Source of the DNA: Caulobacteraceae bacterium
GTDB taxonomy: Bacteria; Pseudomonadota; Alphaproteobacteria; Caulobacterales; Caulobacteraceae
Assembly: GCA_025450315.1 (NCBI GenBank)
Contig: JANWHQ010000159.1
Location: 8,429 to 72,428, forward strand
Direction of reading: 5' to 3'
Length of the DNA: 64,000 bases
Numbering within the stretch: the stretch's first letter is position 1; each line of letters opens with the position of its first letter. The translations under genes and the position numbers were made by a program. A model generated the notes under the pieces. The model was given only the letters and a program-made list of their open reading frames with translations. It searched no databases and was not told the origin of the DNA. This document shows positions 23,836 to 56,472 of the stretch, in pieces.

Positions 23836-24855
23836 TCAGAGCCAATCCGGATATGGCAGGCCGCGTTCCTTGAGGAACTCGGGATTGAACAGCTTGCCCT
23901 GGTAGCGCTGGCCGAGGTCGGCCAGGATGGTGACGACGGTCTTGCCGGGGCCCAGCTCGCGCGCCAGGCGGATGGCGCCAGCGACATTCACGCCCGACGA
24001 ACCGCCCAGGCACATGCCTTCGTGCTGGACCAGGTCGTAGACGATCTCCAGCGCCTCGGGATCGGGGATCTGGCAGCTGAAGTCCAGGTCCAGGCCCTCG
24101 AGGTTGCCGGTCACCCGGCCCTGGCCGATGCCTTCGGTGATCGACGAGCCCTCGGCCTTCAGCTCGCCGGCCGAATACCAGTTGAACAGGGCCGAGCCCA
24201 GCGGGTCGGCCAGGCCGATCTTGATGTCGGGCTTGCGCTCGCGCAGCGCCATGGCCACCCCGGCCAGGGTGCCGCCCGAGCCCACCGCGCAGATGAAGCC
24301 GTCGACCTTGCCCTCGGACTGGGCCCAGATCTCGGGGCCCGTGGTCTCGTAGTGGCCCTGGCGGTTGGCGACGTTGTCGAACTGGTTGGCCCAGACCGCG
24401 CCGTTAGGCTCGGTCTTCGCCCGTTCCTCGGCCAGGGTCCCGGAATAGCGGACGTAGTTGCCGGGATTGGCGTAGGGGACCGCGTCCACCTCGATCAGCT
24501 CGGCGCCCAGAAGGCGCAGGGCGTCCTTCTTCTCCTGGCTCTGGGTGCGCGGGATGACGATGGTGGACCGGTAGCCCAGCGCCTTGCCGACCATGGTCAG
24601 GCCGATGCCGGTGTTGCCGGCGGTGCCCTCCACGATCAGGCCGCCGGGCTTCAGAAGGCCCCGCCGCTCGGCGTCGCGGATGATCGCCAGGGCCGCGCGG
24701 TCCTTGACCGACTGGCCGGGGTTCATGAACTCGGCCTTGCCCCAGATCTCGCAGCCGGTGAGCTCGGACGCGCGTCTCAGACGGATCAGGGGGGTGTCGC
24801 CGATGGCCTCGATGACGCTCGGGCGAACGGTGCGGGGGAGAACTTGGCTTGCCAT
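23836..24855 (-). CDS. cysteine synthase / cystathionine beta-synthase-like PLP enzyme (CysK family, no CBS domains)
   Basis: ATG at 24855 (339 aa). Motifs are [13 protein letters not shown] (PLP Lys), [11 protein letters not shown] and GSGGTLAG. Its stop lies 2 nt from the sseA start. Confidence 0.85.
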
Positions 24856-24960
24856 GAATGGGGCGACGCTAAGGCCTCGGCCAAGGCCGCGCAAGGCCGC
24901 CGCGCTTGCCTGGGCCGCGGGCGCAAGCTAGGCGAGGGACCCCTCTCGGGAGCGGAGCGG

Positions 24961-25818
24961 ATGCAGCCCAACGCCATCGTCGAAGTCCAGGCCCCCGGCG
25001 GCGCCGCCGTGCGCATCGGCAACGGCCTGCCGCTGACCATCATCGCCGGTCCCTGCGCCATGGAGAGCCGCGCCCATGCGCTGGAGACGGCCCAGGCGTT
25101 GAAGGAGATCGCCGGCCGGCTGGGGATCGGGCTGATCTACAAGACCTCGTTCGACAAGGCCAACCGCACCTCGGGGCGGGGCGCCAGGGGCGTCGGCCTG
25201 AACGCCGCCCTGCCGGTGTTCGCCGAAATCCGCGAGAGCCTGGGGATGCCCACCCTGACCGACGTGCACGCGGCCGATCAGTGCGCCGCCGTCGCCGAGG
25301 CGGTGGACGTGCTGCAGATCCCCGCCTTCCTGAGCCGCCAGACCGACCTGCTGGTCGCCGCCGCCCGGACCGGCCGTGCCGTCAACGTCAAGAAGGGCCA
25401 GTTCCTCGCCCCCTGGGACATGAAGAACGTCATCGCCAAGGTGACCGAGGCCGGCAATCCCAACGTCATGGCCTGCGAGCGCGGGGTCTCGTTCGGCTAC
25501 AACACCCTGGTGTCCGACATGCGGGCCTTGCCGATCATGGCCGAGATCGGCTGTCCGGTGGTGTTCGACGCCACCCATTCGGTGCAGGAGCCGGGCGGCC
25601 AGGGGCAATCCTCGGGCGGCCGGCGCGAGTTCGTGCCGGTGCTGGCCCGCGCGGCGGTGGCCGTGGGCGTGGCCTGCGTCTTCATGGAAACCCACCCCGA
25701 CCCCGACAGCGCCCCCTCGGACGGCCCCAACATGGTGCCGCTGAAGGACTTCGAGCCCCTGCTGGCCGAGCTGATGGCCTTCGACGCCCTGGCCAAGCGC
25801 CGCCGGGCCCTGGGGTGA
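24961..25818 (+). CDS. kdsA: 3-deoxy-8-phosphooctulonate synthase
   Basis: ATG at 24961 inside ORF 24022..25818 (285 aa). Motifs are [26 protein letters not shown] and DATHSVQ. Confidence 0.93.
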
Positions 25819-25909
25819 TCCGGCGCAGCCCAGGTTTATGTCGCCCCCGACGCATGTCTGCCGTAATTGTCGCGGAGGCTAAGGTTCAGTCCGGCCCAGG
25901 AGTGATCTG

Positions 25910-26440
25910 ATGAGTCTCCGCCTGCTGCTCCTGGCCGCGAGCGTCATGGCCCTGTCCGGCTCGGCCGTGGCCGCCGACTCCGGGTCCGGCTCGGACGCCG
26001 CCCCGGTGAGCACCGCCTCGCAGGACACCGACCACAAGATCGCCGCCTGGCTGGGCGACACCTCCGACACCCGCCAGCTGCCGGCCGCCAAGAGCCCGTC
26101 GGACGAACCGATTCGCTATCCCGACCAGGGCAAGCCCGACCGCAAGATCCACGGCGAGGTCGGCGCGGGCGTGGGCTCGGACGGCTACCGCAGCGCCTAT
26201 GGCGTGGCGACCATCCCCATCGGCAAGTCGAGCTCGGCGACCATCGCCGTCTCGACCATCCCCGGCCGCGTCCCCTGGGTCGCCGGCGCGCCCTGGTCGG
26301 TCGGCCCCGCCGGCGCCGGGATCAGCGCCGACTGCGTCTGCCACGAGGCGCCCGACGGCCAACAGGTGTGCCGTGTCGCCAGCGCCGCCTCGCCGCTGGA
26401 CGCCCAGCTGGCCGAAGGGGCCTGCCTGGGCGCGCCCTGA
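25910..26440 (+). CDS. hypothetical exported protein
   Basis: 176-aa ORF with a signal peptide (MSLRLLLLAASVMALSGSAVAAD) and a Cys-containing C-terminus. I recognise no family. Confidence 0.5.
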   Translation: MSLRLLLLAASVMALSGSAVAADSGSGSDAAPVSTASQDTDHKIAAWLGDTSDTRQLPAAKSPSDEPIRYPDQGKPDRKIHGEVGAGVGSDGYRSAYGVATIPIGKSSSATIAVSTIPGRVPWVAGAPWSVGPAGAGISADCVCHEAPDGQQVCRVASAASPLDAQLAEGACLGAP

Positions 26441-26475
26441 TCCCGGCGCGGCCTCCGGCATGACGGGCCGCTGCT

Positions 26476-27906
26476 TCAGGCCGCCGGGCTCCAGCCCAGC
26501 ACCGACTTCAGCTCCAGGAACTCCGAGAAGGCGTAGTCGCCGAACTCGCGGCCGTTGCCCGACTGTTTGTAGCCGCCGAAGGGCACGTTGAGGTCGAGGC
26601 CCGCGTTGTTCAGGCTGATGTAGCCGGCGCGGATCTCGCGGCCGACGGCGCGGGCCTTGTCGATGTCGGCGCTCTGCACATAGCCGGCCAGGCCGTAGTC
26701 GGTGTCGTTGCCGATCTCGATGGCCTCGTCCAGGGTGTCGTAGCCCAGGATGCAGAGCACCGGGCCGAAGATCTCTTCGCGCGCCACGGCCATGTCGTTG
26801 GTGACGCCAGCCAGGATGGTCGGCTTGACGAAATAGCCGGTCTCCAGCCCCTCGGGCTTGCCGAGGCCGCCCGTCACCACCGTCGCACCGGCGTCCATGC
26901 CCTTGCGGATCAGGCCCTGGACCTTGTTCCACTGGGCCTCGGAGACCACCGGCCCCATGCGGGCGTTGCCGGTGGGATCGCCGGGCGTCCAGGTCTCGGC
27001 CACCTGCTTGGCGATGGCGCAGACCTGGTCCATCAGCGTGTTGGGCGCCAGCATGCGCGTGGGCGCGCGGCACGACTGCCCGGAGTTCTGCATCACCGCG
27101 TTGACGCTGCCGGTGATGGCCGGGGTGAGGTCGGCGTCCTCCAGCACGATGTTGGGCGACTTGCCCCCCAGCTCCTGGTGCACGCGCTTGAGGGTGGGGG
27201 CGGCGGCCTTGGCGACCTCGATGCCCGCGCGGGTCGAGCCGGTGATCGAGACCATGTCGACGTCCGGATGGGCCGACAGGGCCGCGCCGACCACGGGGCC
27301 TTCGCCCTGGACCAGGTTGAAGACGCCGGGCGGCGTTCCCGCCGCCTCGAGGATCTCGGCGAAGATCTGGCCCGAGAAGGGGGCGATCTCGGAGGGTTTC
27401 AAGACCACGGTGCAGCCCACCGCCAGGGCCGGTGCGACCTTGGCGCAGATCTGGTGGATCGGCCAGTTCCAGGGGGTGATGAAGCCGCAGACGCCGATCG
27501 GCTCCTTCAGTATGCGGCTGGTCCCGCGGTCCTCCTCGAAGGCGTAGCGCTCGAGCACGCCGATGGCCGACTTGAAGTGGTTGACGCCGATGGGCGCCTG
27601 GGTGCCCTGGGCCAGCCAGGCAGGGGCGCCCATCTCCTGGGTGATGGCTTCGCCCATGTCGCCGACGCGGGCCTGGAAGGCCTCGACGATGCGGTTCAAG
27701 AGCGTCAGCCGGTCTTCCCGCGAGGACTTGCGCCAGGTCTTGAACGCCGTCTTGGCCGCGGCGACGGCGCGGTCCACGTCGGCGGCGGAGCCCGCGCTGA
27801 CGCGGCCGCAGACCTCCTCGGTCGCCGGATTGATGACGTCGATGGTGCGGGGCTGGGCGGGCAGGATCCACTGGCCGCCGATGTAGAACTTCAGATGCTC
27901 GCGCAT
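26476..27906 (-). CDS. NAD(P)-dependent aldehyde dehydrogenase
   Basis: 476-aa ORF with ITPWNWP, ELGGKSP and a catalytic Cys region (NSGQSCRAPTR). Confidence 0.9.
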   Translation of the reverse strand: MREHLKFYIGGQWILPAQPRTIDVINPATEEVCGRVSAGSAADVDRAVAAAKTAFKTWRKSSREDRLTLLNRIVEAFQARVGDMGEAITQEMGAPAWLAQGTQAPIGVNHFKSAIGVLERYAFEEDRGTSRILKEPIGVCGFITPWNWPIHQICAKVAPALAVGCTVVLKPSEIAPFSGQIFAEILEAAGTPPGVFNLVQGEGPVVGAALSAHPDVDMVSITGSTRAGIEVAKAAAPTLKRVHQELGGKSPNIVLEDADLTPAITGSVNAVMQNSGQSCRAPTRMLAPNTLMDQVCAIAKQVAETWTPGDPTGNARMGPVVSEAQWNKVQGLIRKGMDAGATVVTGGLGKPEGLETGYFVKPTILAGVTNDMAVAREEIFGPVLCILGYDTLDEAIEIGNDTDYGLAGYVQSADIDKARAVGREIRAGYISLNNAGLDLNVPFGGYKQSGNGREFGDYAFSEFLELKSVLGWSPAA

Positions 27907-28018
27907 GATCCCTCCTGGCGGGAGGGTCTTAGAGGGTTTTCACCGCGCCGGGGAAGCCCAAGCGAACGGAACCGAAGCTGGCGCGGCCCGCCGGGGCCAG
28001 CCGCGCCGCGGCTCCAGG

Positions 28019-28435
28019 CTAGTGGTGGTGGCCGCCGCCGCCATGGCCGCCGTGACCGCCATGGTCGCCGCCGCCACGACCGCCACGGTCCCCGCCGCCC
28101 TGACCGCCATAGTGGCCGCCCTCGTAGCGGCCGCCGCCGTAGTGGCCGTCGCGATGACCGTAGTCGCGGCCGCCGCCACCGCGGCGGCTCCAGCCGTTCC
28201 AGCCGTAGACGCCGCCCCAGCCGTAGCCGCGGCGCCAGCCATAGCCGCACCAGTACCAGCCCGGACCGTGCCAGCCGCCGTCGTACCAGCAGTAGCGATG
28301 GCCGCCGTAGTTATAGATGCCGATGCCGCCGGGGCCGATGACGATGGCCTGGGCGCTGGCGACCTGCGGAATGGCCGCCGCCCCGCCGGCCGCGGTGGCC
28401 AGCGCGAGGGATGCTGCAAGCAAGGCGCGTTTCAT
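28019..28435 (-). CDS. exported Gly/Trp/Tyr-rich protein with a His-rich C-terminus
   Basis: 138-aa ORF. It has a signal peptide (MKRALLAASLALATAAGGAAAIPQVASAQA), a G/W/Y-rich core with two Cys, and the tail GGGDHGGHGGHGGGGHHH. Confidence 0.55.
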   Translation of the reverse strand: MKRALLAASLALATAAGGAAAIPQVASAQAIVIGPGGIGIYNYGGHRYCWYDGGWHGPGWYWCGYGWRRGYGWGGVYGWNGWSRRGGGGRDYGHRDGHYGGGRYEGGHYGGQGGGDRGGRGGGDHGGHGGHGGGGHHH

Positions 28436-28523
28436 GGAGAGTCTCCCGTGTTGTCCAGTCTCAGCTAAAACGCAGAAGCGGGCCGAGGGTTGGGCCCCTG
28501 GGGCTGAACCGCGCCTGAACGGA

Positions 28524-29273
28524 TCAGATGAGTCCGAGGGCCCTGAAGCTGGCGACGCCCTGGAGGCCCACCACCAGATGGTCGTGCACCGAGAGGTTCA
28601 GGGTGCGGCAGGCCGAGATCACCTGTCGTGTCATGTCCACGTCGGCCTGGGAAGGGCTGGGATCGCCCGAGGGGTGGTTGTGCACCAGGATCACCGCCGA
28701 GGCCGCCAGCTCCAGCGCCCGACGGGCCACCTCGCGCGGATAGACCGGGGCATGGTCGACCGTGCCCTGGTTCATCACCTCGTCGGCGATCAGCTGGTTC
28801 TTCTTGTCCAGGAACAGCACGCGGAACTGCTCGCGCGGCTCGTGCGCCAGGGCCAGCTTGACGTAGGCCAGAAGCGCGCTCCACGAGCCGATGACGGTGC
28901 GTTTCTGCATGCAATCCAGACCCATGCGCTGGGCCAGTTCATGCACCAGCTTCAGGTCGAGCGCCGCCTGGGGACCGATCCCGCGCACGGTGCAGAGATC
29001 CTCGACCGAGGCCGACAACACGCCCTGCAGCGTGCCGAAGCGGGTGATCAGGGCCTTGGCCAGCGGCTTGACGTCGCCGCGCGGGAACGAGCGGAACAGG
29101 TAGAGCTCCAGCGCCTCGTAGTCGGCCAGGGCCGCGAACCCCGCGTTCAGCGCCCGCTCGCGCAGCCGCTCGCGATGGCCGAGGTGATGCGGCCTGGGCT
29201 GTGCCGGCGCGGCCGGCGGCGCGAACAGCTGCGCGCCGCTCCAGGCCTCCCGCACCTCGCCCGAATCCGCCAT
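28524..29273 (-). CDS. radC: RadC-family JAB/MPN domain protein
   Basis: 249-aa ORF with an HhH region (DLCTVRGIGPQAA) and the JAMM motif HNHPSGDPSPSQAD. Confidence 0.9.
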   Translation of the reverse strand: MADSGEVREAWSGAQLFAPPAAPAQPRPHHLGHRERLRERALNAGFAALADYEALELYLFRSFPRGDVKPLAKALITRFGTLQGVLSASVEDLCTVRGIGPQAALDLKLVHELAQRMGLDCMQKRTVIGSWSALLAYVKLALAHEPREQFRVLFLDKKNQLIADEVMNQGTVDHAPVYPREVARRALELAASAVILVHNHPSGDPSPSQADVDMTRQVISACRTLNLSVHDHLVVGLQGVASFRALGLI

Positions 29274-29321
29274 GGCCCGCTCCGAGAACGCCGCATCATG
29301 TTCGTTATTTGTTCCGCCGGC

Positions 29322-29329
29322 AAGGGGCG
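29322..29329. repeat. left copy of the 8-bp target-site duplication AAGGGGCG
   Basis: Identical octamer at 32370..32377. Each copy directly abuts the outer end of a terminal inverted repeat. Confidence 0.85.
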
Positions 29330-29354
29330 GGCGATGTTACACTTGACAAACCAG
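29330..29354 (+). repeat. left terminal inverted repeat (IRL) GGCGATGTTACACTTGACAAACCAG
   Basis: The reverse complement of 32345..32369 is GGCGATGTTACACTTCGCAAACTAG. The first 15 nt are identical and 22 of 25 match overall. Confidence 0.85.
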
Positions 29355-29391
29355 CCTCAAGATATAGGTTGGGCGTCAAGGAGTTACGCCC

Positions 29392-30357
29392 ATGGCCCGC
29401 GCCGTTCTCGATGCCCCGCACTTCCACGATGAAGCCGCCGCATTCGCCTACGTAGAAGCGCTGCTGTGGCCGCAAGGCCCGGTCTGCCCCCACTGCCAAG
29501 CGGCTGGGGAACAGGTCTATCGGCTGGGCGGCAATGCCACCCGGATCGGCCTGCACAAGTGCCGGAGCTGCAAGGGCCAGTTCACCGTCCGCCAAGGGAC
29601 CATCTTCGAAAGCTCGCACCTGCCCCTGCATCTCTGGCTGCAGGTCATCCACCTCATGTGCGCCTCGAAGAAGGGCATCAGCACCCGTCAGATCCAACGG
29701 ATGCTGCAATGCTCCATGAAGACCGCCTGGTTCCTCGGCCACCGCATCCGCGAAGCCATGGCCGAGAAGCACGGCATCTTCACCCCGCCGCTTGGCGGCG
29801 CTGGCAAGGTCATCGAGGCCGATGAGGCATTCCTGAGCCGCGATCCCTCCAAGAAGCTCAAGGGCCCCGGGCCGGCATTGCCGGTCATGTCGCTGGTCGA
29901 GCGCGAAGGAAAGGTCCGCTCGTTCCACATTCCCGACGTGACCGTGAAGACCCTCCACACCGTCCTCGCTCGGCACGCCTCCAAGGAAAGCCGCCTGATG
30001 ACCGATGGCGCATACGCCTATCGCTCCATCGGCTGGAACTTCGCCGACCACGCTTGGGTCAACCACGAGGAGCGCGAGTACGTCTCCCGCCAGGACCCCT
30101 CGATCCATTCGAACACCGTGGAAGGGGTCTTCTCGATCCTGAAGCGCGGCGTTTACGGGACCTTCCACCACGTCTCGGAAGCGCACCTGAAGCGCTACCT
30201 CGCGGAGTTCGACTTCCGGTACAACACCCGCGCCAAGCTGGGCGTTGACGACATCGAGCGCGCCGACATCGCGCTTCAGGGCGCCAAGGGCAAGCGCCTC
30301 ACCTACGAAACGACTGGTCGCAGAGGGCAAGCTTCGGCCGGGGGCGCTACCGCCTAG
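29392..30357 (+). CDS. IS1595 family transposase
   Basis: 321-aa ORF with an N-terminal zinc ribbon (CPHC...CRSC) and the ISXO2-like DDE region (..VIEADEAFL.., ..LMTDGAYAY.., ..NTVEGVFSILKRG..). Confidence 0.9.
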   Translation: MARAVLDAPHFHDEAAAFAYVEALLWPQGPVCPHCQAAGEQVYRLGGNATRIGLHKCRSCKGQFTVRQGTIFESSHLPLHLWLQVIHLMCASKKGISTRQIQRMLQCSMKTAWFLGHRIREAMAEKHGIFTPPLGGAGKVIEADEAFLSRDPSKKLKGPGPALPVMSLVEREGKVRSFHIPDVTVKTLHTVLARHASKESRLMTDGAYAYRSIGWNFADHAWVNHEEREYVSRQDPSIHSNTVEGVFSILKRGVYGTFHHVSEAHLKRYLAEFDFRYNTRAKLGVDDIERADIALQGAKGKRLTYETTGRRGQASAGGATA

Positions 30358-30411
30358 GCGCTGGCGTCGCTCGCGTGACTCTGAGCCTGATCCGGCGCAG
30401 CTGCGGCAACA

Positions 30412-30612
30412 CTAATTCAAGAGGGATTGCCTCTTCCGTGAACGCCATTGCCCACGAACTTCCGCACCTTCTGAAGAGGTGAGGATTCCGAGGCGCCGAA
30501 GTTGGTCCACTGTAAGGTTTTCCCAATCGGCCCTGGCGTCCAACGCCTCGGCCAACGGGATGCCACGAACAAAGAAATCGTTCAGGGACGGCTTCGGTCG
30601 TTGATTGCGCAT
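30412..30612 (-). CDS. hypothetical small protein (weak call)
   Basis: 66-aa ORF in the lower-GC cargo, antisense to the rest of the cargo operon. I recognise no family and it may not be expressed. Confidence 0.25.
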   Translation of the reverse strand: MRNQRPKPSLNDFFVRGIPLAEALDARADWENLTVDQLRRLGILTSSEGAEVRGQWRSRKRQSLLN

Positions 30613-30743
30613 GCCGCATCCTCTCGCGTAGATTCATCCACGCGATGGCGGCCAGCCATCTTGTCACGGCCAGGGGGATTCCGGCCCCCTGAAAACAGGG
30701 CTTTCGCCCCGCGAGTCCTATAGCGGATGCGGGGTGATTTGTC

Positions 30744-31481
30744 GTGTCAGAACACCGGAAAGGGCGTTGGCCCGATCTTTATTTGCCGTTTGATGAGGAA
30801 TTGCGCCTAGCCCATAGTCAGGCGGAAACAGTCATGGACGATGCATCGAACGTCATAGGCGCATTCAGCGAGGACCATGCCGCCGCGCTGAGCGAGATTT
30901 CCGTCCGCCAGCTTCGCAAATGGAATCGCATCGGTTTGCTCCGGCCGAGCTACGGCGCTGACGAGCGCCACGTTCCCTATGGCCGGGTCTATTCCTTCCG
31001 CGACGTCGTCTCGCTGCGCGTGCTCGGGCAGCTACGGAACAAGCTCCGGGTCCCCGAGGCGCACCTGATGGACGTGCAAAGGGAACTATCGAAGCTGTCT
31101 GATGAGCCATGGGCCTCTCGGACCTTAGAAGTGCTCAAGCGTCGTGTTGTGATCCGAGACCCGGTCACCTTGGAGAAACGGGAGCTCATCAGTGGTCAGC
31201 GGGTATTGGACATCCCGCTAAGGTTGGTAATCTCCAGCCTTCGTGGTGCGGTGGCCAAGTTGAATGAACGCGGCGCTGACGAGATTGGAAAAGTGAAGCG
31301 GTACAAGTTCGTCTCAGAGAACCAGCCCGTGATCGCCGGCACCCGCATTTCTGTGGCGGCGATCAAGTCATTTGCCGACGCTGGCTACAGCGTTGACGCC
31401 ATCATCAAGGAGTATCCCGGCCTCAAAGCCGAGGACGTTAAGGCGGCCATTGAGTACCATGGCCAGTCCGCCGCCGCTTAA
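30744..31481 (+). CDS. MerR-type HTH fused to a C-terminal DUF433 (antitoxin-like) domain
   Basis: 245-aa ORF. The N-terminal part is MerR-like (FSEDHAAALSEISVRQLRKWNRIGLLRP...YSFRDVVSLRVLGQLR). The C-terminus is DUF433-like (PVIAGTRISVAAIKSFADAGYSVDAIIKEYPGLKAEDVKAAIEY). An alternative start at the internal MDDASN is possible. Confidence 0.75.
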   Translation: MSEHRKGRWPDLYLPFDEELRLAHSQAETVMDDASNVIGAFSEDHAAALSEISVRQLRKWNRIGLLRPSYGADERHVPYGRVYSFRDVVSLRVLGQLRNKLRVPEAHLMDVQRELSKLSDEPWASRTLEVLKRRVVIRDPVTLEKRELISGQRVLDIPLRLVISSLRGAVAKLNERGADEIGKVKRYKFVSENQPVIAGTRISVAAIKSFADAGYSVDAIIKEYPGLKAEDVKAAIEYHGQSAAA

Positions 31482-31867
31482 TGGCGAAGGCAACGCCAAA
31501 GCTGCGCTTTTTCACCGATGCCAACGTGCCTGACTCCGTCGGGGATTATCTGCGCCTCCGAGGCCACAGCGTTCACCGAATGCGCCACCATATGCCGGTC
31601 AATTCGGCCGATCCCATCGTTGCGACCGCCGCTATGCGGGATAATCGAATTCTAGTCAGCCAAGACAAGGATTTCGGTCATCAGCGCTTCATGGCGCCGC
31701 GCTTCGCCAGTCTCAACCGCTTGGCGCTTGTCGGGGCTGGCCCGACGTTGTCATCGGCCGTGAAGCAGTACATGCACCTGATCGAACTTCACTGGAGCCA
31801 CAAGAGCCGGAAGGGCGCGCGGCTCACGATCCACGTCAAAGCGGACGAGGTCCGGTTCCGGGACTGA
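31481..31867 (+). CDS. DUF5615 family PIN-like nuclease (putative toxin)
   Basis: 128-aa ORF whose start overlaps the upstream stop (TAATG). The acidic residues are placed as in a PIN-like fold (RFFTDANVP..., ILVSQDKDFG). Confidence 0.8.
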   Translation: MAKATPKLRFFTDANVPDSVGDYLRLRGHSVHRMRHHMPVNSADPIVATAAMRDNRILVSQDKDFGHQRFMAPRFASLNRLALVGAGPTLSSAVKQYMHLIELHWSHKSRKGARLTIHVKADEVRFRD

Positions 31868-31876
31868 CGTGTTAAG

Positions 31877-32062
31877 ATGACGACCATGGCCAAAGCACAA
31901 CCGAAGCCCAAGCTCACCGACGCCGAACGCCACGAGCGCTTCAAGGATATGGCGAAGGAGCTAGGAGCCGAGGGCGAAGCGCCGGGATTTGACCGCGTTG
32001 TTGGACGTGTGGCGAAGCTTCCCCGCGAGAACCCAAGTTCGGATAAGGGGCAGCAGGATTGA
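31877..32062 (+). CDS. hypothetical small soluble protein
   Basis: 61-aa charged ORF starting 9 nt after the PIN-like gene, on the same strand. I recognise no family. Confidence 0.35.
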   Translation: MTTMAKAQPKPKLTDAERHERFKDMAKELGAEGEAPGFDRVVGRVAKLPRENPSSDKGQQD

Positions 32063-32307
32063 GTGTAGACCCGCGCGTGCCTGGCGACGCCATCGTCGCG
32101 GCGGTATCGGGCCTCTACGTCGCCGCTTCGATCAGCTTGGGTCGCACCATCAACCCGAACGTGTTTGCGTGGCCGCTCGGGAGGGTCATTCTGCGCCGGA
32201 GAGGCGATGCCGGCATCTTCTGGCTTTGGGTTGTCATGGCCGCGCTGTGGTTCGTTGGTTCCTTCTACGCGACGGTCAGACTCCTGTTTTTCGGTCGTTA
32301 CCCCTGA
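32059..32307 (+). CDS. hypothetical small membrane protein (two predicted TM segments)
   Basis: 82-aa ORF whose TTG start overlaps the upstream stop (TTGA). Hydrophobic stretches are AIVAAVSGLYVAASISL and IFWLWVVMAALWFVGSFYATV. Confidence 0.4.
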   Translation: MSVDPRVPGDAIVAAVSGLYVAASISLGRTINPNVFAWPLGRVILRRRGDAGIFWLWVVMAALWFVGSFYATVRLLFFGRYP

Positions 32308-32344
32308 ACGTCACCCGGACGTTTCCTAGTCCTACATCTGGCCC

Positions 32345-32369
32345 CTAGTTTGCGAAGTGTAACATCGCC
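32345..32369 (-). repeat. right terminal inverted repeat (IRR)
   Basis: Reverse complement of IRL (22/25). It is immediately followed by the right TSD copy. Confidence 0.85.
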
Positions 32370-32377
32370 AAGGGGCG
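32370..32377. repeat. right copy of the 8-bp target-site duplication AAGGGGCG
   Basis: Identical to 29322..29329. Confidence 0.85.
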
Positions 32378-32430
32378 ATGGCCAAGGTGGGCGACGCGCG
32401 CTATCGTTTCGATCCGGACACACTGACGCC

Positions 32431-33039
32431 ATGCGCATGAGACGCCTGATCTGCGCCGCCGCCATGGGCGCCGTCCTGACCGGCGGGCCCCCCGCCACCG
32501 CCCAGTCCGCCGACCCGACCGTGGTCGCGGGCGTGACCGTGCTGGCGCGCCGGCCCCACGTGGTGGCCGGTCTGACGATCACCCCCGGACGCAGATGCCT
32601 GGGGGCCCGCCATCCCGCCGATCCGGAGGTCCCGGCGCCGAAACTCGTCAGCACCTTCCCGGCGAAAGGGGGCGTGGTGCGGCCGGGGATCCTGGTCCTG
32701 CGGCTGACCTTCGATCTGCCGATGACCTGCGAAGGCCTGCTCGACGGCCATCCGGACCTGCTGAATCCCTGCCCTCAGCCGCTCCACGATCCGCTGCTCA
32801 GCTTCGACCGGCGCACCTTCCTGACGGTCTGCCAGGTCAAGAAGAGCAGCCATTACGGCCTGTGGCTCAACCACAGCATCTATCACCGCTTCACCGGTCT
32901 GGCGGGACGGTCCTCGCAAGCCTCCGAACTGGTGTTCGACACCTCGGACGGGCCCGAGACCACCACCGTCGAGCAGGCGATCGCGGAGGACAATTGGCTG
33001 CAGCGGGCGGCGCTGCCGCAGCAGCCGCCGAAGGATTAG
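32431..33039 (+). CDS. hypothetical exported protein
   Basis: ATG at 32431 gives MRMRRLICAAAMGAVLTGGPPATAQS (signal peptide), 202 aa. The tracked start at 32350 lies inside the IS inverted repeat, so I rejected it. Confidence 0.55.
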   Translation: MRMRRLICAAAMGAVLTGGPPATAQSADPTVVAGVTVLARRPHVVAGLTITPGRRCLGARHPADPEVPAPKLVSTFPAKGGVVRPGILVLRLTFDLPMTCEGLLDGHPDLLNPCPQPLHDPLLSFDRRTFLTVCQVKKSSHYGLWLNHSIYHRFTGLAGRSSQASELVFDTSDGPETTTVEQAIAEDNWLQRAALPQQPPKD

Positions 33040-54618: not shown

Positions 54619-56472
54619 ATGAGCGGTGCAGTGAAATTGGGCCAAGGACAAATGCACGCCGCCCCGGACCTGGCGCAGCTCGAGCTCCCCGACCGGATGG
54701 ATCGCTTATGGCCCGTCGCCGAGGCGTGCCTGCGGCGGGTCTACGGATCGCGACCCGACTGCGAGTTCTGGCTGCAGGGCATCGCACGGGTGGTCAAGGC
54801 GCTCGGGGAGGCCCGGCCGCGGGAACTGGCCCTGCGGGATCAGTCCCGTCCCGAATGGTGGCGGACGGGGAGCGTGGTCGGCTATTCGGCCTATGTCGAT
54901 CGCTTCGCGGGCGATCTGCGTGGCCTGCGGAGCCGCCTCCCGTACCTCAAGGAACTGGGCGTCCGCTATCTTCACCTCCTGCCGCTGCTCAAGTCGCGCG
55001 AGGGCGACAACGACGGGGGGTTCGCGGTCTCGGACTTCGGCTCGGTCGAGCCCCGACTGGGGACCAACGCAGACCTGCAGGACCTGGCGAGAGCGGCGCA
55101 CGAGATGGACCTCAGCCTCGTCCTTGACCTCGTCTGCAACCACACCGCCGACGATCACGCCTGGGCGAAGGCCGCGCGATCGGGCGACGAGGAATACAGG
55201 GACTACTACATCGTCCTGCCGGATCAGGGCGTGGTGGCGGACTACGAGAAGCGGCTGATCGACGTCTTTCCGGACGTCGCTCCCGGCAACTTCACCTATT
55301 CCAAGGAGATGGGCGGCTGGGTCTGGACCACCTTCTACCCATTCCAGTGGGACCTGAACTACGCCAATCCGGCCGTGTTCTGCGAGATGACGGCGGCCAT
55401 GCTGCGGTTGGCCAACATGGGGGTGGACGGCCTGCGCCTGGATTCCGCGCCTTTCATCTGGAAGCGGCGAGGGACAGCCTGCCGCAACCTGCCCGAGGCG
55501 CACTGGCTCCTGGCGACCTGGCGCGCACTGCTGACCATCGCCGCGCCCGGGGTGGTGCTCAAGGCCGAGGCGATCGAGCGCCTCGAGGATGTGAAGTCCT
55601 ATTTTGGGGAGACCGTCACCGAGCCGGAGTGTCACCTCGCCTACAACAACGGCGCCATGACCGCGCTCTGGGCGTCCCTGGCGCTCGGCCGTGCGGAGCC
55701 CATGCGGCGACTCGTCGATGCGGCCAGCCGGAAGCCTGCCTGGGGGACGTGGGTGAACTATGTGCGCTGCCACGACGACATCATCTGGTCTGCGCTGAGC
55801 CCGTGCCTGAGCCCTGAAGACCAGGCCCGCTGCTCCTCGTTCTTCGCCGGCCAGGTGAGCGGCTCGTTCGCCGCCGGCTCCGCCTTCCAGTCGGTCGCCG
55901 GCGCCGCCGCCAGCACCAACGGGATGGCCGCCGCGCTGGTCGGCATCGGTGACGATGATCCGGGCTCGGACGCCGCCAGGAGACTGGCGTTGTTGTACGC
56001 CGTGAGCTTCGCCTTGGATGGGATCCCGATCATCTGGATGGGCGACGAGATCGCCTTGGGAGACGCCGCGGCGAACCAGGACGCAGGCGCCGCCGGGTCC
56101 GACGGCCGATGGCTGCAACGGCCCCGCATGGATTGGCGGCGCGCAGACCTGCGAGGCGACGGCGGCGCGTTGCCCGGCCATGTGTTCCAGCAGTTTGCGC
56201 TCTATGCCCGGATTCGCGCGGCCGAGGCGGCCTTCGACGCCCAGCACGTGGCCAGGACAACGAAGGCGGACCATGTCGCCGTCCTGTGTTTCGTGCGAGG
56301 CGAGGGGGCCAGCTCGATCCAGTGCGCGGCGAACTTCTCGAACGCGAGATGCTCCACCAGATTGACGCTCGATGGCGGCAGCTGGCTGGACCTCCTGTCG
56401 CAGGACGCGGGAAGGGCGCGGGAGGTTGAGCTCGGCCCGTACCAGGTCCGTTGGCTCGTCAGCCGCCCGTGA
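54619..56472 (+). CDS. amylosucrase / sucrose hydrolase (GH13)
   Basis: 617-aa ORF without a signal peptide. GH13 blocks are DLVCNHTA and GLRLDSAPFIWKRRGTACRNLPEAH (amylosucrase-type), plus VRCHDD. Confidence 0.88.
   Translation: MSGAVKLGQGQMHAAPDLAQLELPDRMDRLWPVAEACLRRVYGSRPDCEFWLQGIARVVKALGEARPRELALRDQSRPEWWRTGSVVGYSAYVDRFAGDLRGLRSRLPYLKELGVRYLHLLPLLKSREGDNDGGFAVSDFGSVEPRLGTNADLQDLARAAHEMDLSLVLDLVCNHTADDHAWAKAARSGDEEYRDYYIVLPDQGVVADYEKRLIDVFPDVAPGNFTYSKEMGGWVWTTFYPFQWDLNYANPAVFCEMTAAMLRLANMGVDGLRLDSAPFIWKRRGTACRNLPEAHWLLATWRALLTIAAPGVVLKAEAIERLEDVKSYFGETVTEPECHLAYNNGAMTALWASLALGRAEPMRRLVDAASRKPAWGTWVNYVRCHDDIIWSALSPCLSPEDQARCSSFFAGQVSGSFAAGSAFQSVAGAAASTNGMAAALVGIGDDDPGSDAARRLALLYAVSFALDGIPIIWMGDEIALGDAAANQDAGAAGSDGRWLQRPRMDWRRADLRGDGGALPGHVFQQFALYARIRAAEAAFDAQHVARTTKADHVAVLCFVRGEGASSIQCAANFSNARCSTRLTLDGGSWLDLLSQDAGRAREVELGPYQVRWLVSRP

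Follow-up and report, generated by a model that had tools for sequence, protein, structure and literature searches.

We analyzed a 64,000-nucleotide stretch of a Caulobacteraceae contig (JANWHQ010000159.1; hereafter the window) and found between positions 29330 and 32369 a cleanly delimited, apparently intact mobile element with exact ends. We interpret it, with a probability of about 0.9, as a complete passenger-carrying insertion sequence (IS) of the IS1595 family, a so-called transporter IS, which entered as one 3,040-bp insertion and duplicated the target octamer AAGGGGCG. The interval between the ends holds one intact IS1595-type transposase gene, a predicted toxin-antitoxin gene pair and a small gene, here called c3. 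Comparison with related elements places it in an alphaproteobacterial IS1595 clade in which 0.5-5 kb of extra DNA is the rule and a small second gene accompanies the transposase.

Ends, target duplication and insertion site

The preliminary description of this DNA, made from the sequence alone, had proposed 25-bp terminal inverted repeats that are identical over the first 15 nt and match at 22 of 25 positions, abutted on both outer sides by a perfect 8-bp duplication, and all of these coordinates agree on re-reading the sequence. The left inverted repeat (IRL; GGCGATGTTACACTTGACAAACCAG) occupies positions 29330-29354 on the plus strand and the right inverted repeat (IRR) positions 32345-32369 on the minus strand, its reverse complement being GGCGATGTTACACTTCGCAAACTAG. 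A repeat search returned IRL and IRR as the longest inverted repeat of the region, with weaker similarity up to 29368 on the left and from 32331 on the right that extends the match to 39 nt at 79% identity. The two copies of AAGGGGCG, at 29322-29329 and 32370-32377, are flush with IRL and IRR, respectively. The GG start (GGCGATGTTACAC... at both ends), the terminal inverted repeats and the 8-bp duplication are traits of the IS1595 family, for which the 8-bp duplication and terminal GG are documented features (PMC8101967). A C precedes both octamer copies, and judging from the window copy alone the duplication may be 9 bp with a right end one base shorter; the GG termini and the 8-bp duplications of the delimited relatives described below favor 8 bp. 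The terminal 15-mer occurs in the window in two exact copies, in opposite orientations, and a scan allowing up to three mismatches returned only one further match, an unrelated site at 55627. As had been claimed, the transposase gene is thus not followed by an internal right end; the presence of one had been named beforehand among the points on which the reading of a single large unit could fall.

An independent assembly, JGI metagenome 3300035174, reproduces both junctions of the element, the left one in a contig equal to window positions 23938-30757 with 2 mismatches (L001) and the right one in a contig equal to positions 31556-32929 with 0 mismatches (L175), and the structure is therefore no assembly artefact. 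In the JGI assembly, made from the same population, the antitoxin gene has a contig break on either side, with L001 ending at 30757 and L175 starting at 31556. The break at 30758-31555 is probably ordinary assembly fragmentation, and it could also arise from several divergent genes of the antitoxin's MerR/DUF433 type in that community. The end of L001 was considered as a sign of a shorter variant of the element and rejected, L175 being identical to the right part of the element and its junction.

The element sits in a region of ~110 bp between the divergent radC gene (28524-29273, minus strand; Pfam RadC) and a gene for an exported protein. A RadC-anchored protein search retrieved a relative (L088) in which radC is 88% identical and has as its divergently oriented neighbor a gene whose product is a 58% identical homologue of the exported protein; the intergenic regions align. 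The window has GCAAGGGGCG to the left and to the right of the element; this relative has a single, unduplicated GCAAGAGGGT at the aligned position, and its locus is without the IS and without the toxin-antitoxin genes. An empty site (...CCGCCGGCAAGGGGCGATGGCC...) in relatives had been predicted; the prediction holds insofar as the region between radC and the exported-protein gene is uninterrupted in the diverged L088, and the exact 26-mer had no match in the metagenome collection. In its full length of 3,040 bp the element behaves as one insertion, and for annotation this means that the "hypothetical" genes lying between radC and the exported-protein gene are imported.

Transposase, cargo and the small gene c3

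The transposase gene (29392-30357, plus strand) encodes an intact protein of 321 aa and is the one IS1595-type transposase gene that the preliminary description had recognized. The product matches Pfam Zn_ribbon_IS1595 (PF12760) with 44.7 bits (cut-off 25.4) over profile positions 2-46 of 46, Pfam DDE_Tnp_IS1595 (PF12762) with 106.9 bits (cut-off 27) over positions 5-153 of 153, and the NCBIfam IS1595 transposase model NF033547 with 177.2 bits (cut-off 75). An N-terminal zinc ribbon is shared by every subgroup of the family but IS1016. The zinc-ribbon cysteines C32, C35, C57 and C60 are at least 97% conserved across 145 aligned homologues, as are D144, D205, E244, K251 and the E272-x3-R276 motif. 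From their position within the Pfam domain, D144, D205 and E244 together with K251 would be the catalytic residues, in keeping with the family pattern of an acidic triad and a basic residue after it (DDE/N + K).

A putative transposase promoter lies at 29343-29370 on the plus strand, with the -35 hexamer TTGACA at 29343-29348, a 16-nt spacer and a -10-like TAGGTT at 29365-29370; it is followed by a likely ribosome-binding site, AAGGAG (29378-29383, plus strand), upstream of the transposase ATG. The hexamer TTGACA falls at repeat positions 14-19, where it is present in 36 of 42 left ends of the clade as against 6 of 42 right ends, and in left ends a conserved TAGnnT stands 16-17 nt downstream of it. 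The left/right asymmetry at repeat positions 16-18 recurs across the clade, including relatives with perfect duplications. The transposase promoter is thus probably located partly inside the left repeat, although a stricter consensus promoter scan found no promoter.

Downstream of the transposase, a spacer (30358-30833) in which similarity to related elements ends at about 30366 leads to the predicted antitoxin gene (30834-31481, plus strand). Its 215-aa product has an N-terminal MerR-type helix-turn-helix (HTH; Pfam MerR_1) and a C-terminal DUF433 domain (COG2442; 53.1 bits, cut-off 23.6). The start was placed at ATG 30834 and not at GTG 30744 because the 215-aa product is an exact match to an NCBI protein (P0121) and its homologues, in more than 380 clusters, are ~213 aa long; this start also aligns with that of the homologue in a closely related element (L082, below). 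The predicted toxin gene (31481-31867, plus strand; 128 aa) begins with an ATG that overlaps the antitoxin stop codon (TAATG), and its product belongs to DUF5615/PIN_10, a family of PIN-like nucleases (38.2 bits, cut-off 23.8). No sequence relative of the toxin was found among solved structures, and neither the exact toxin product nor P0121 has a record in the contig index. The cargo is predicted to be a VapBC-type PIN-COG2442 pair, made up of a MerR-HTH/DUF433 antitoxin and a DUF5615 PIN-like toxin. The genes form a two-gene, antitoxin-first operon of the kind that defines PIN-COG2442 systems, the pairing is kept in two related elements (L082 and L169), and the pair lies between the repeats with no internal end, as expected of transporter IS cargo.

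Two further open reading frames (ORFs) lie in this DNA. A hydrophobic ORF of 82 aa (32059-32307, plus strand; 76 aa from an alternative start at GTG 32077) has a coding-like GC content at third codon positions (GC3) of 0.77 and is called as a gene by NCBI, JGI and Logan. It is without a family match, including in PADLOC and NCBIfam, and without a homologue in the related loci, and it is possibly a second passenger. The one terminator-like site found lies inside this ORF, fewer such sites than shuffled sequence would give, and the right-hand 600 bp gave no significant match to a DUF3800 gene or other passenger gene. A reverse ORF of 66 aa in the spacer (30412-30612, minus strand; GC3 0.60) matches no family, those of PADLOC and NCBIfam included, lacks homologues in the related loci and is probably not a gene; the spacer also yielded no significant match to a degraded c3, and an Rfam scan of 28500-33000 gave no match. 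The GC content falls from ~0.70 in the flanks to 0.64 in the transposase gene and 0.57-0.63 in the cargo, and GC3 from 0.89-0.91 in host genes to 0.85 in the transposase gene and 0.68-0.77 in the cargo. The earlier view that lower-GC DNA with several extra ORFs lies inside the ends as cargo is therefore upheld for the DNA but not for every ORF, as the 66-aa reverse ORF is probably no gene and the 61-aa ORF is c3, a gene of the clade.

The small gene c3 (31877-32062, plus strand; 61 aa) is conserved in this IS clade. Homologues were found by tblastn in 20 loci, and a hidden Markov model (HMM) built from those matches 74 of 85 transposase loci, always downstream of the transposase on the same strand and inside 36 of 39 delimited elements; examples among loci L002-L085 are L082:4801-4968 and L084:9628-9807, and the protein is ~55 aa long. 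A single-sequence search of 1.84 billion cluster representatives gave 82 matches at E<=1e-3, mostly of 50-90 aa. The core motif is KPKLTDAERHxRFxxMAxEVGA...FDRAF, and the AlphaFold2 model, built on the alignment of these matches, has a basic N-terminal tail and helices at residues 15-28 and 38-46, with a predicted local distance difference test score of 74 and a predicted template modeling score of 0.33. Searches of Pfam, NCBIfam and PADLOC returned no match, and the sources label the product as a hypothetical protein. Judged by its distribution, c3 is a backbone gene of the IS clade and not cargo. Its product presumably serves as an accessory or regulatory factor, though to assign it to regulation or DNA binding would be no more than a guess.

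Related elements and apparent exchange of cargo

A scan of species-representative genomes gave 80 loci with transposases 49-66% identical to that of the window, nearly all from alphaproteobacterial metagenome-assembled genomes (MAGs), and closer transposases (74-87% identity) were obtained from a large protein collection that holds roughly 7,800 homologous transposases. In the plasmid collection a megablast search with the whole element gave no match, and tblastn with the transposase gave only matches of 48% identity or less, annotated as "IS1595 family transposase", so that there is no near copy on known plasmids. Elements were delimited by a GG left end no more than 150 bp upstream of the transposase, an inverted copy downstream and a flanking 8-bp repeat. 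By these means 38 species-representative loci were delimited with GG-terminal repeats, all but one (37/38) with a perfect 8/8 duplication, and their lengths range from 1,519 to 6,232 bp with a median of 2,912 bp. The delimited relatives number 44 in all, with transposases 50-87% identical, lengths of 1.5-6.2 kb and nearly always perfect 8-bp duplications. Most have termini that begin GGCGAYGTTACACTTGACA..., as does the window IRL, and more distant ones begin GGCRATTAT.... In every delimited relative, 0.5-5.2 kb lie beyond the transposase. Members of this clade carry passenger DNA as a rule, and 3 kb is a typical size; the contrast drawn in the preliminary description between 3,040 bp and about 1 kb is apt for the IS1595 family but does not extend to the clade, given the median of the 38 elements.

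The commonest passengers are DUF3800 proteins, encoded in at least 18 of the 38 delimited elements, always on the strand opposite to the transposase, abutting the right end and converging on c3 (examples in the right-hand part of the element are L016, L009, L005, L033, L044, L045, L065, L054 and L172). A second recurrent passenger belongs to an unannotated family of ~280 aa.

Toxin-antitoxin genes of the same type recur among the closer relatives. L082, with a transposase 87% identical, is an element of 2,333 bp in a different genomic context, with the duplication CCCGCGAA and the gene order transposase, c3, MerR/DUF433, DUF5615; its antitoxin and toxin are 46% and 34% identical to those of the window. 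L169 (transposase 76%; 3,342 bp; duplication GTTCCGTT) carries transposase, c3, MerR/DUF433, DUF5615 and three more ORFs, and its antitoxin is 59% identical to that of the window. In L166-L168 (transposase 74%), the transposase is followed by c3 and a MerR/DUF433 gene whose product is 61% identical to the window antitoxin; these contigs end before any toxin gene and before the right end, so that the elements are not delimited. L084/L085 (transposase 78%; 3,932 bp; duplication CTCCGGCC) is without the pair and carries three unrelated ORFs between the transposase and a c3 that is 73% identical, while further relatives carry DUF3800 or other genes. The proposal that the element offers a route for moving toxin-antitoxin modules is borne out to the extent that L082 and L169, which lie at unrelated sites and have repeats and duplications of their own, contain a pair of this type between their ends.

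Comparison of the window with L082 and L084 by blastn shows that similarity stops 9-10 nt past the transposase stop codon. Between the window and L084, nucleotide similarity resumes only at c3 and at the right end, where the L084 sequence includes a 23-nt stretch identical to that of the window. It follows from this pattern that the elements are mosaics, with a left block, a variable middle and a block comprising c3 and the right end. The divergence of the toxin-antitoxin proteins is out of step with that of the transposases, and this incongruence together with the differing gene order implies that the cargo was exchanged or acquired more than once and not simply inherited. The cargo region thus appears, from these alignments, to be swapped among relatives by recombination (module shuffling). 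A more speculative extension, which we offer tentatively, is that the clade is a modular "cassette platform" in which a left block consisting of the promoter-bearing repeat and the transposase is fixed, the near-universal and possibly undescribed c3 takes part in or regulates transposition, and a cargo slot directly after the transposase stop codon is swapped by recombination. The swapped modules would then be of defence or addiction type, such as PIN/DUF433 pairs and DUF3800 proteins.

Several further observations were made on the target sites and surroundings of the relatives. In some 9-10 of 45 related elements the 8-bp duplication is centered in a GC-rich perfect palindrome, such as ccctcgcccCCCGAGAGgggggagaggg; palindromic target sites were reconstructed for L015, L024, L054, L082, L084, L016, L045 and L072, which suggests a preference for hairpins that resemble repetitive extragenic palindromes (REP) or terminators. 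The window's own target is not obviously of the palindromic hairpin type. The flank tcccataatatacattatgc or its reverse complement is common to elements from different MAGs next to AT-rich duplications, on the right of L025, L031, L034, L039, L044, L055 and L078 and on the left of L022, L043 and L073, and in L039, L034 and L044 the left flank resembles the right end of a same-type IS abutting the duplication. Such flanks might stem from a conserved target, from a nested repeat, or from elements arranged in tandem or as in a circle junction. A relative with a 74% identical transposase (2,362 bp; duplication GTCAAGGA; L170:1101-3462 and L171:1009-3370) splits a short-chain dehydrogenase gene of a Caulobacteraceae MAG into fragments of 78 and 196 aa, a clear gene disruption by this IS type. 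Finally, a 62-kb contig (L174; ENA contig_63322) holds two IS1595-type transposase genes and an IS605-type OrfB/TnpB gene in a region with many small ORFs, NinB and an N6_N4 methyltransferase that looks prophage-like.

Mobility, alternative explanations and known systems

From family membership, the zinc-ribbon and DDE transposase would recognize both termini and move the whole interval between them, inserting it through an 8-bp staggered cut. Transcription of the transposase would start from the promoter whose -35 hexamer lies inside the left repeat, as comparison with the relatives suggests, and by analogy with other PIN-COG2442 systems the toxin-antitoxin operon may penalize loss of the element or of the replicon that carries it. 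The route of transposition in the IS1595 family may be cut-and-paste or one of copying. The element is well formed and probably active, and it is plausible that it is recent and still mobile. Several observations weigh against the main interpretation. The element is present in a single copy in the window, and the evidence of transposition is indirect, consisting of the empty site in a relative and of related elements at unrelated sites. Among ~15 billion proteins there was no near-identical copy, the nearest transposase being 87% identical. The repeats differ at 3 of 25 positions, though the asymmetry is clade-wide, and the empty site is known from a diverged relative and not from a sister strain. 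As to the cargo, the DUF5615 match of the toxin spans only profile positions 2-65 of 110. The window order transposase, pair, c3 also differs from the order transposase, c3, pair of the relatives (antitoxin alone in L166-L168), and the toxin-antitoxin proteins are 34-61% identical to those of the relatives, so that the cargo need not be of common descent.

The single copy in 64 kb, the lack of a near-identical copy in public data, the three differences between the ends and the absence of a promoter passing the consensus scan speak for an immobile fossil, that is, a genuine past insertion that no longer transposes in this host, for example after divergence of its right end or loss of expression. 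This is possible, but we consider it doubtful: the transposase is full length with every conserved residue present, the duplication is undecayed at 8/8, the asymmetry at repeat positions 16-18 is also seen in relatives with perfect duplications, and the GC3 of the element (0.68-0.85) is still below that of the host genes, which argues against long residence. A somewhat less probable alternative, and in our view an unlikely one, is that the toxin-antitoxin pair, far from being a passive passenger, has been selected as an integral component of the transposition module and couples stabilization or regulation to transposition. The MerR/DUF433 gene does recur beside the transposase in four lineages with transposase identities of 74-100%, the DUF5615 gene follows it wherever the contig extends (in the window, L082 and L169), the divergence of the pair does not track that of the transposase, which suggests repeated acquisition or retention, and there is a precedent in the Tn3 family (PMC7157771). 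Yet most members of the clade carry other passengers, such as DUF3800 genes, without a toxin-antitoxin pair, and the pair does not keep a constant place with respect to c3.

The remaining two explanations deny that the interval is one unit or an element at all, and both have very little probability. A composite, in which a plain IS (the transposase with or without c3) came to lie beside resident toxin-antitoxin genes and the outer right repeat is solo or fortuitous, would account for the lower GC3 of the cargo relative to the transposase and for the break in similarity to relatives right after the transposase stop codon. The data already refute it for the most part: no right end occurs inside the element, only the outer ends are abutted by the duplication, neither the IS nor the toxin-antitoxin genes are present at this site in L088, c3 and a right end identical to that of L084 over 23 nt lie beyond the pair, and in L082 and L169 a pair of this type is bounded by the element's own ends and duplications. 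Even less can be said for a chance arrangement of inverted and direct repeats around an orphan transposase gene. By itself the octamer AAGGGGCG is common in this GC-rich window, with 7 copies where 4.3 are expected, but an inverted repeat matching at 22 or more of 25 positions within 5 kb and flanked by a flush 8/8 duplication is expected ~1.4e-5 times in the window, and the comparative data refute such an arrangement, the termini matching those of more than 40 related elements. The preferred reading remains that of a passenger-carrying IS1595-family element inserted as a whole.

Within the family, the ISNwi1 subgroup of ISfinder has ends of the form ggnnatTAT, a DDEK transposase with an ER4 motif, and passenger-bearing members of 1.75-4.75 kb. 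The window terminus, GGCGATGTTAC, matches the ggnnat part but not the TAT, and E244...K251 with E272-x3-R276 fit the DDEK and ER4 traits of ISNwi1; relatives at 50-53% identity in the same set have the termini GGCGATTAT or GGCAATTAT. By DDEK, ER4 and size the element may be of ISNwi1 type, but its terminus differs.

Transporter IS (tIS) were defined on the IS1595 family in 2009 (Siguier, Gagnevin & Chandler, as cited in PMC3129680 and PMC11891212). They are elements otherwise like an IS that hold, between their ends, genes with no part in transposition (PMC3129680). The window element resembles the ISNwi1- and ISNha5-type tIS in its single zinc-ribbon and DDE(K) transposase, GG-terminal repeats and 8-bp duplication, in the passenger genes located between the ends downstream of the transposase, in its alphaproteobacterial host and in its length of ~3 kb. 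The passengers of ISNha5, as PMC11891212 refers to them, are transcription regulators, whereas the passenger in the window is a toxin-antitoxin pair. Plain IS1595-family members, with one ORF in about 0.7-1.1 kb, have their transposase domains, 8-bp duplication and terminal GG in common with the element (PMC8101967), which is three times longer than they are and holds in addition the conserved small gene c3 and ~1.5 kb of passenger DNA. The element is not surprising and leaves current understanding in place; passenger-carrying members of the family have been on record since 2009.

The nearest conceptual precedent for the cargo is found in Tn3-family transposons, in which toxin-antitoxin pairs are near-integral passengers (Lima-Mendez et al. 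2020, PMC7157771). As there, a type II pair (of PIN type, among others) is located beside the transposition genes of a transposable element, and toxin-antitoxin modules are exchanged between related elements. The Tn3 family differs in its transposase superfamily, with a large DDE TnpA plus a resolvase, and in its 5-bp duplications and 38-bp repeats, and the window element is far smaller, with no res site or resolvase. PIN-COG2442 (DUF433) pairs have been predicted to be VapBC-type systems, with HTH fusions to COG2442 antitoxins noted (PMC2701414), and one such pair, Synechocystis VapBC10, is a functional toxin-antitoxin system in which growth is arrested by the toxin and the antitoxin counteracts it (PMC3834315). 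As in VapBC10-type systems, the antitoxin gene in the window lies upstream of the PIN-like toxin gene and overlaps it, and the antitoxin contains DUF433. Unlike these, the window antitoxin is 215 aa long with an N-terminal MerR-type HTH, compared with ~75 aa, and the predicted toxin comes from the DUF5615/PIN_10 branch.

The recurrence of one toxin-antitoxin type at unrelated sites supports the view that very small IS-like elements serve as vehicles for addiction or defence modules. The comparison also yielded some less ordinary by-products: a small gene present across the clade, a cargo region that looks cassette-like, and toxin-antitoxin and DUF3800 passengers that recur.

Outside the element, just beyond radC, an ORF of 138 aa (28019-28435, minus strand) is among the genes called in JGI contig L001 and is without a Pfam match. 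It has a signal-peptide-like N-terminus, and its C-terminal half is repetitive and extremely rich in Gly, His, Arg, Tyr and Trp (GGHYGGQGGGDRGGRGGGDHGGHGGHGGGGHHH).

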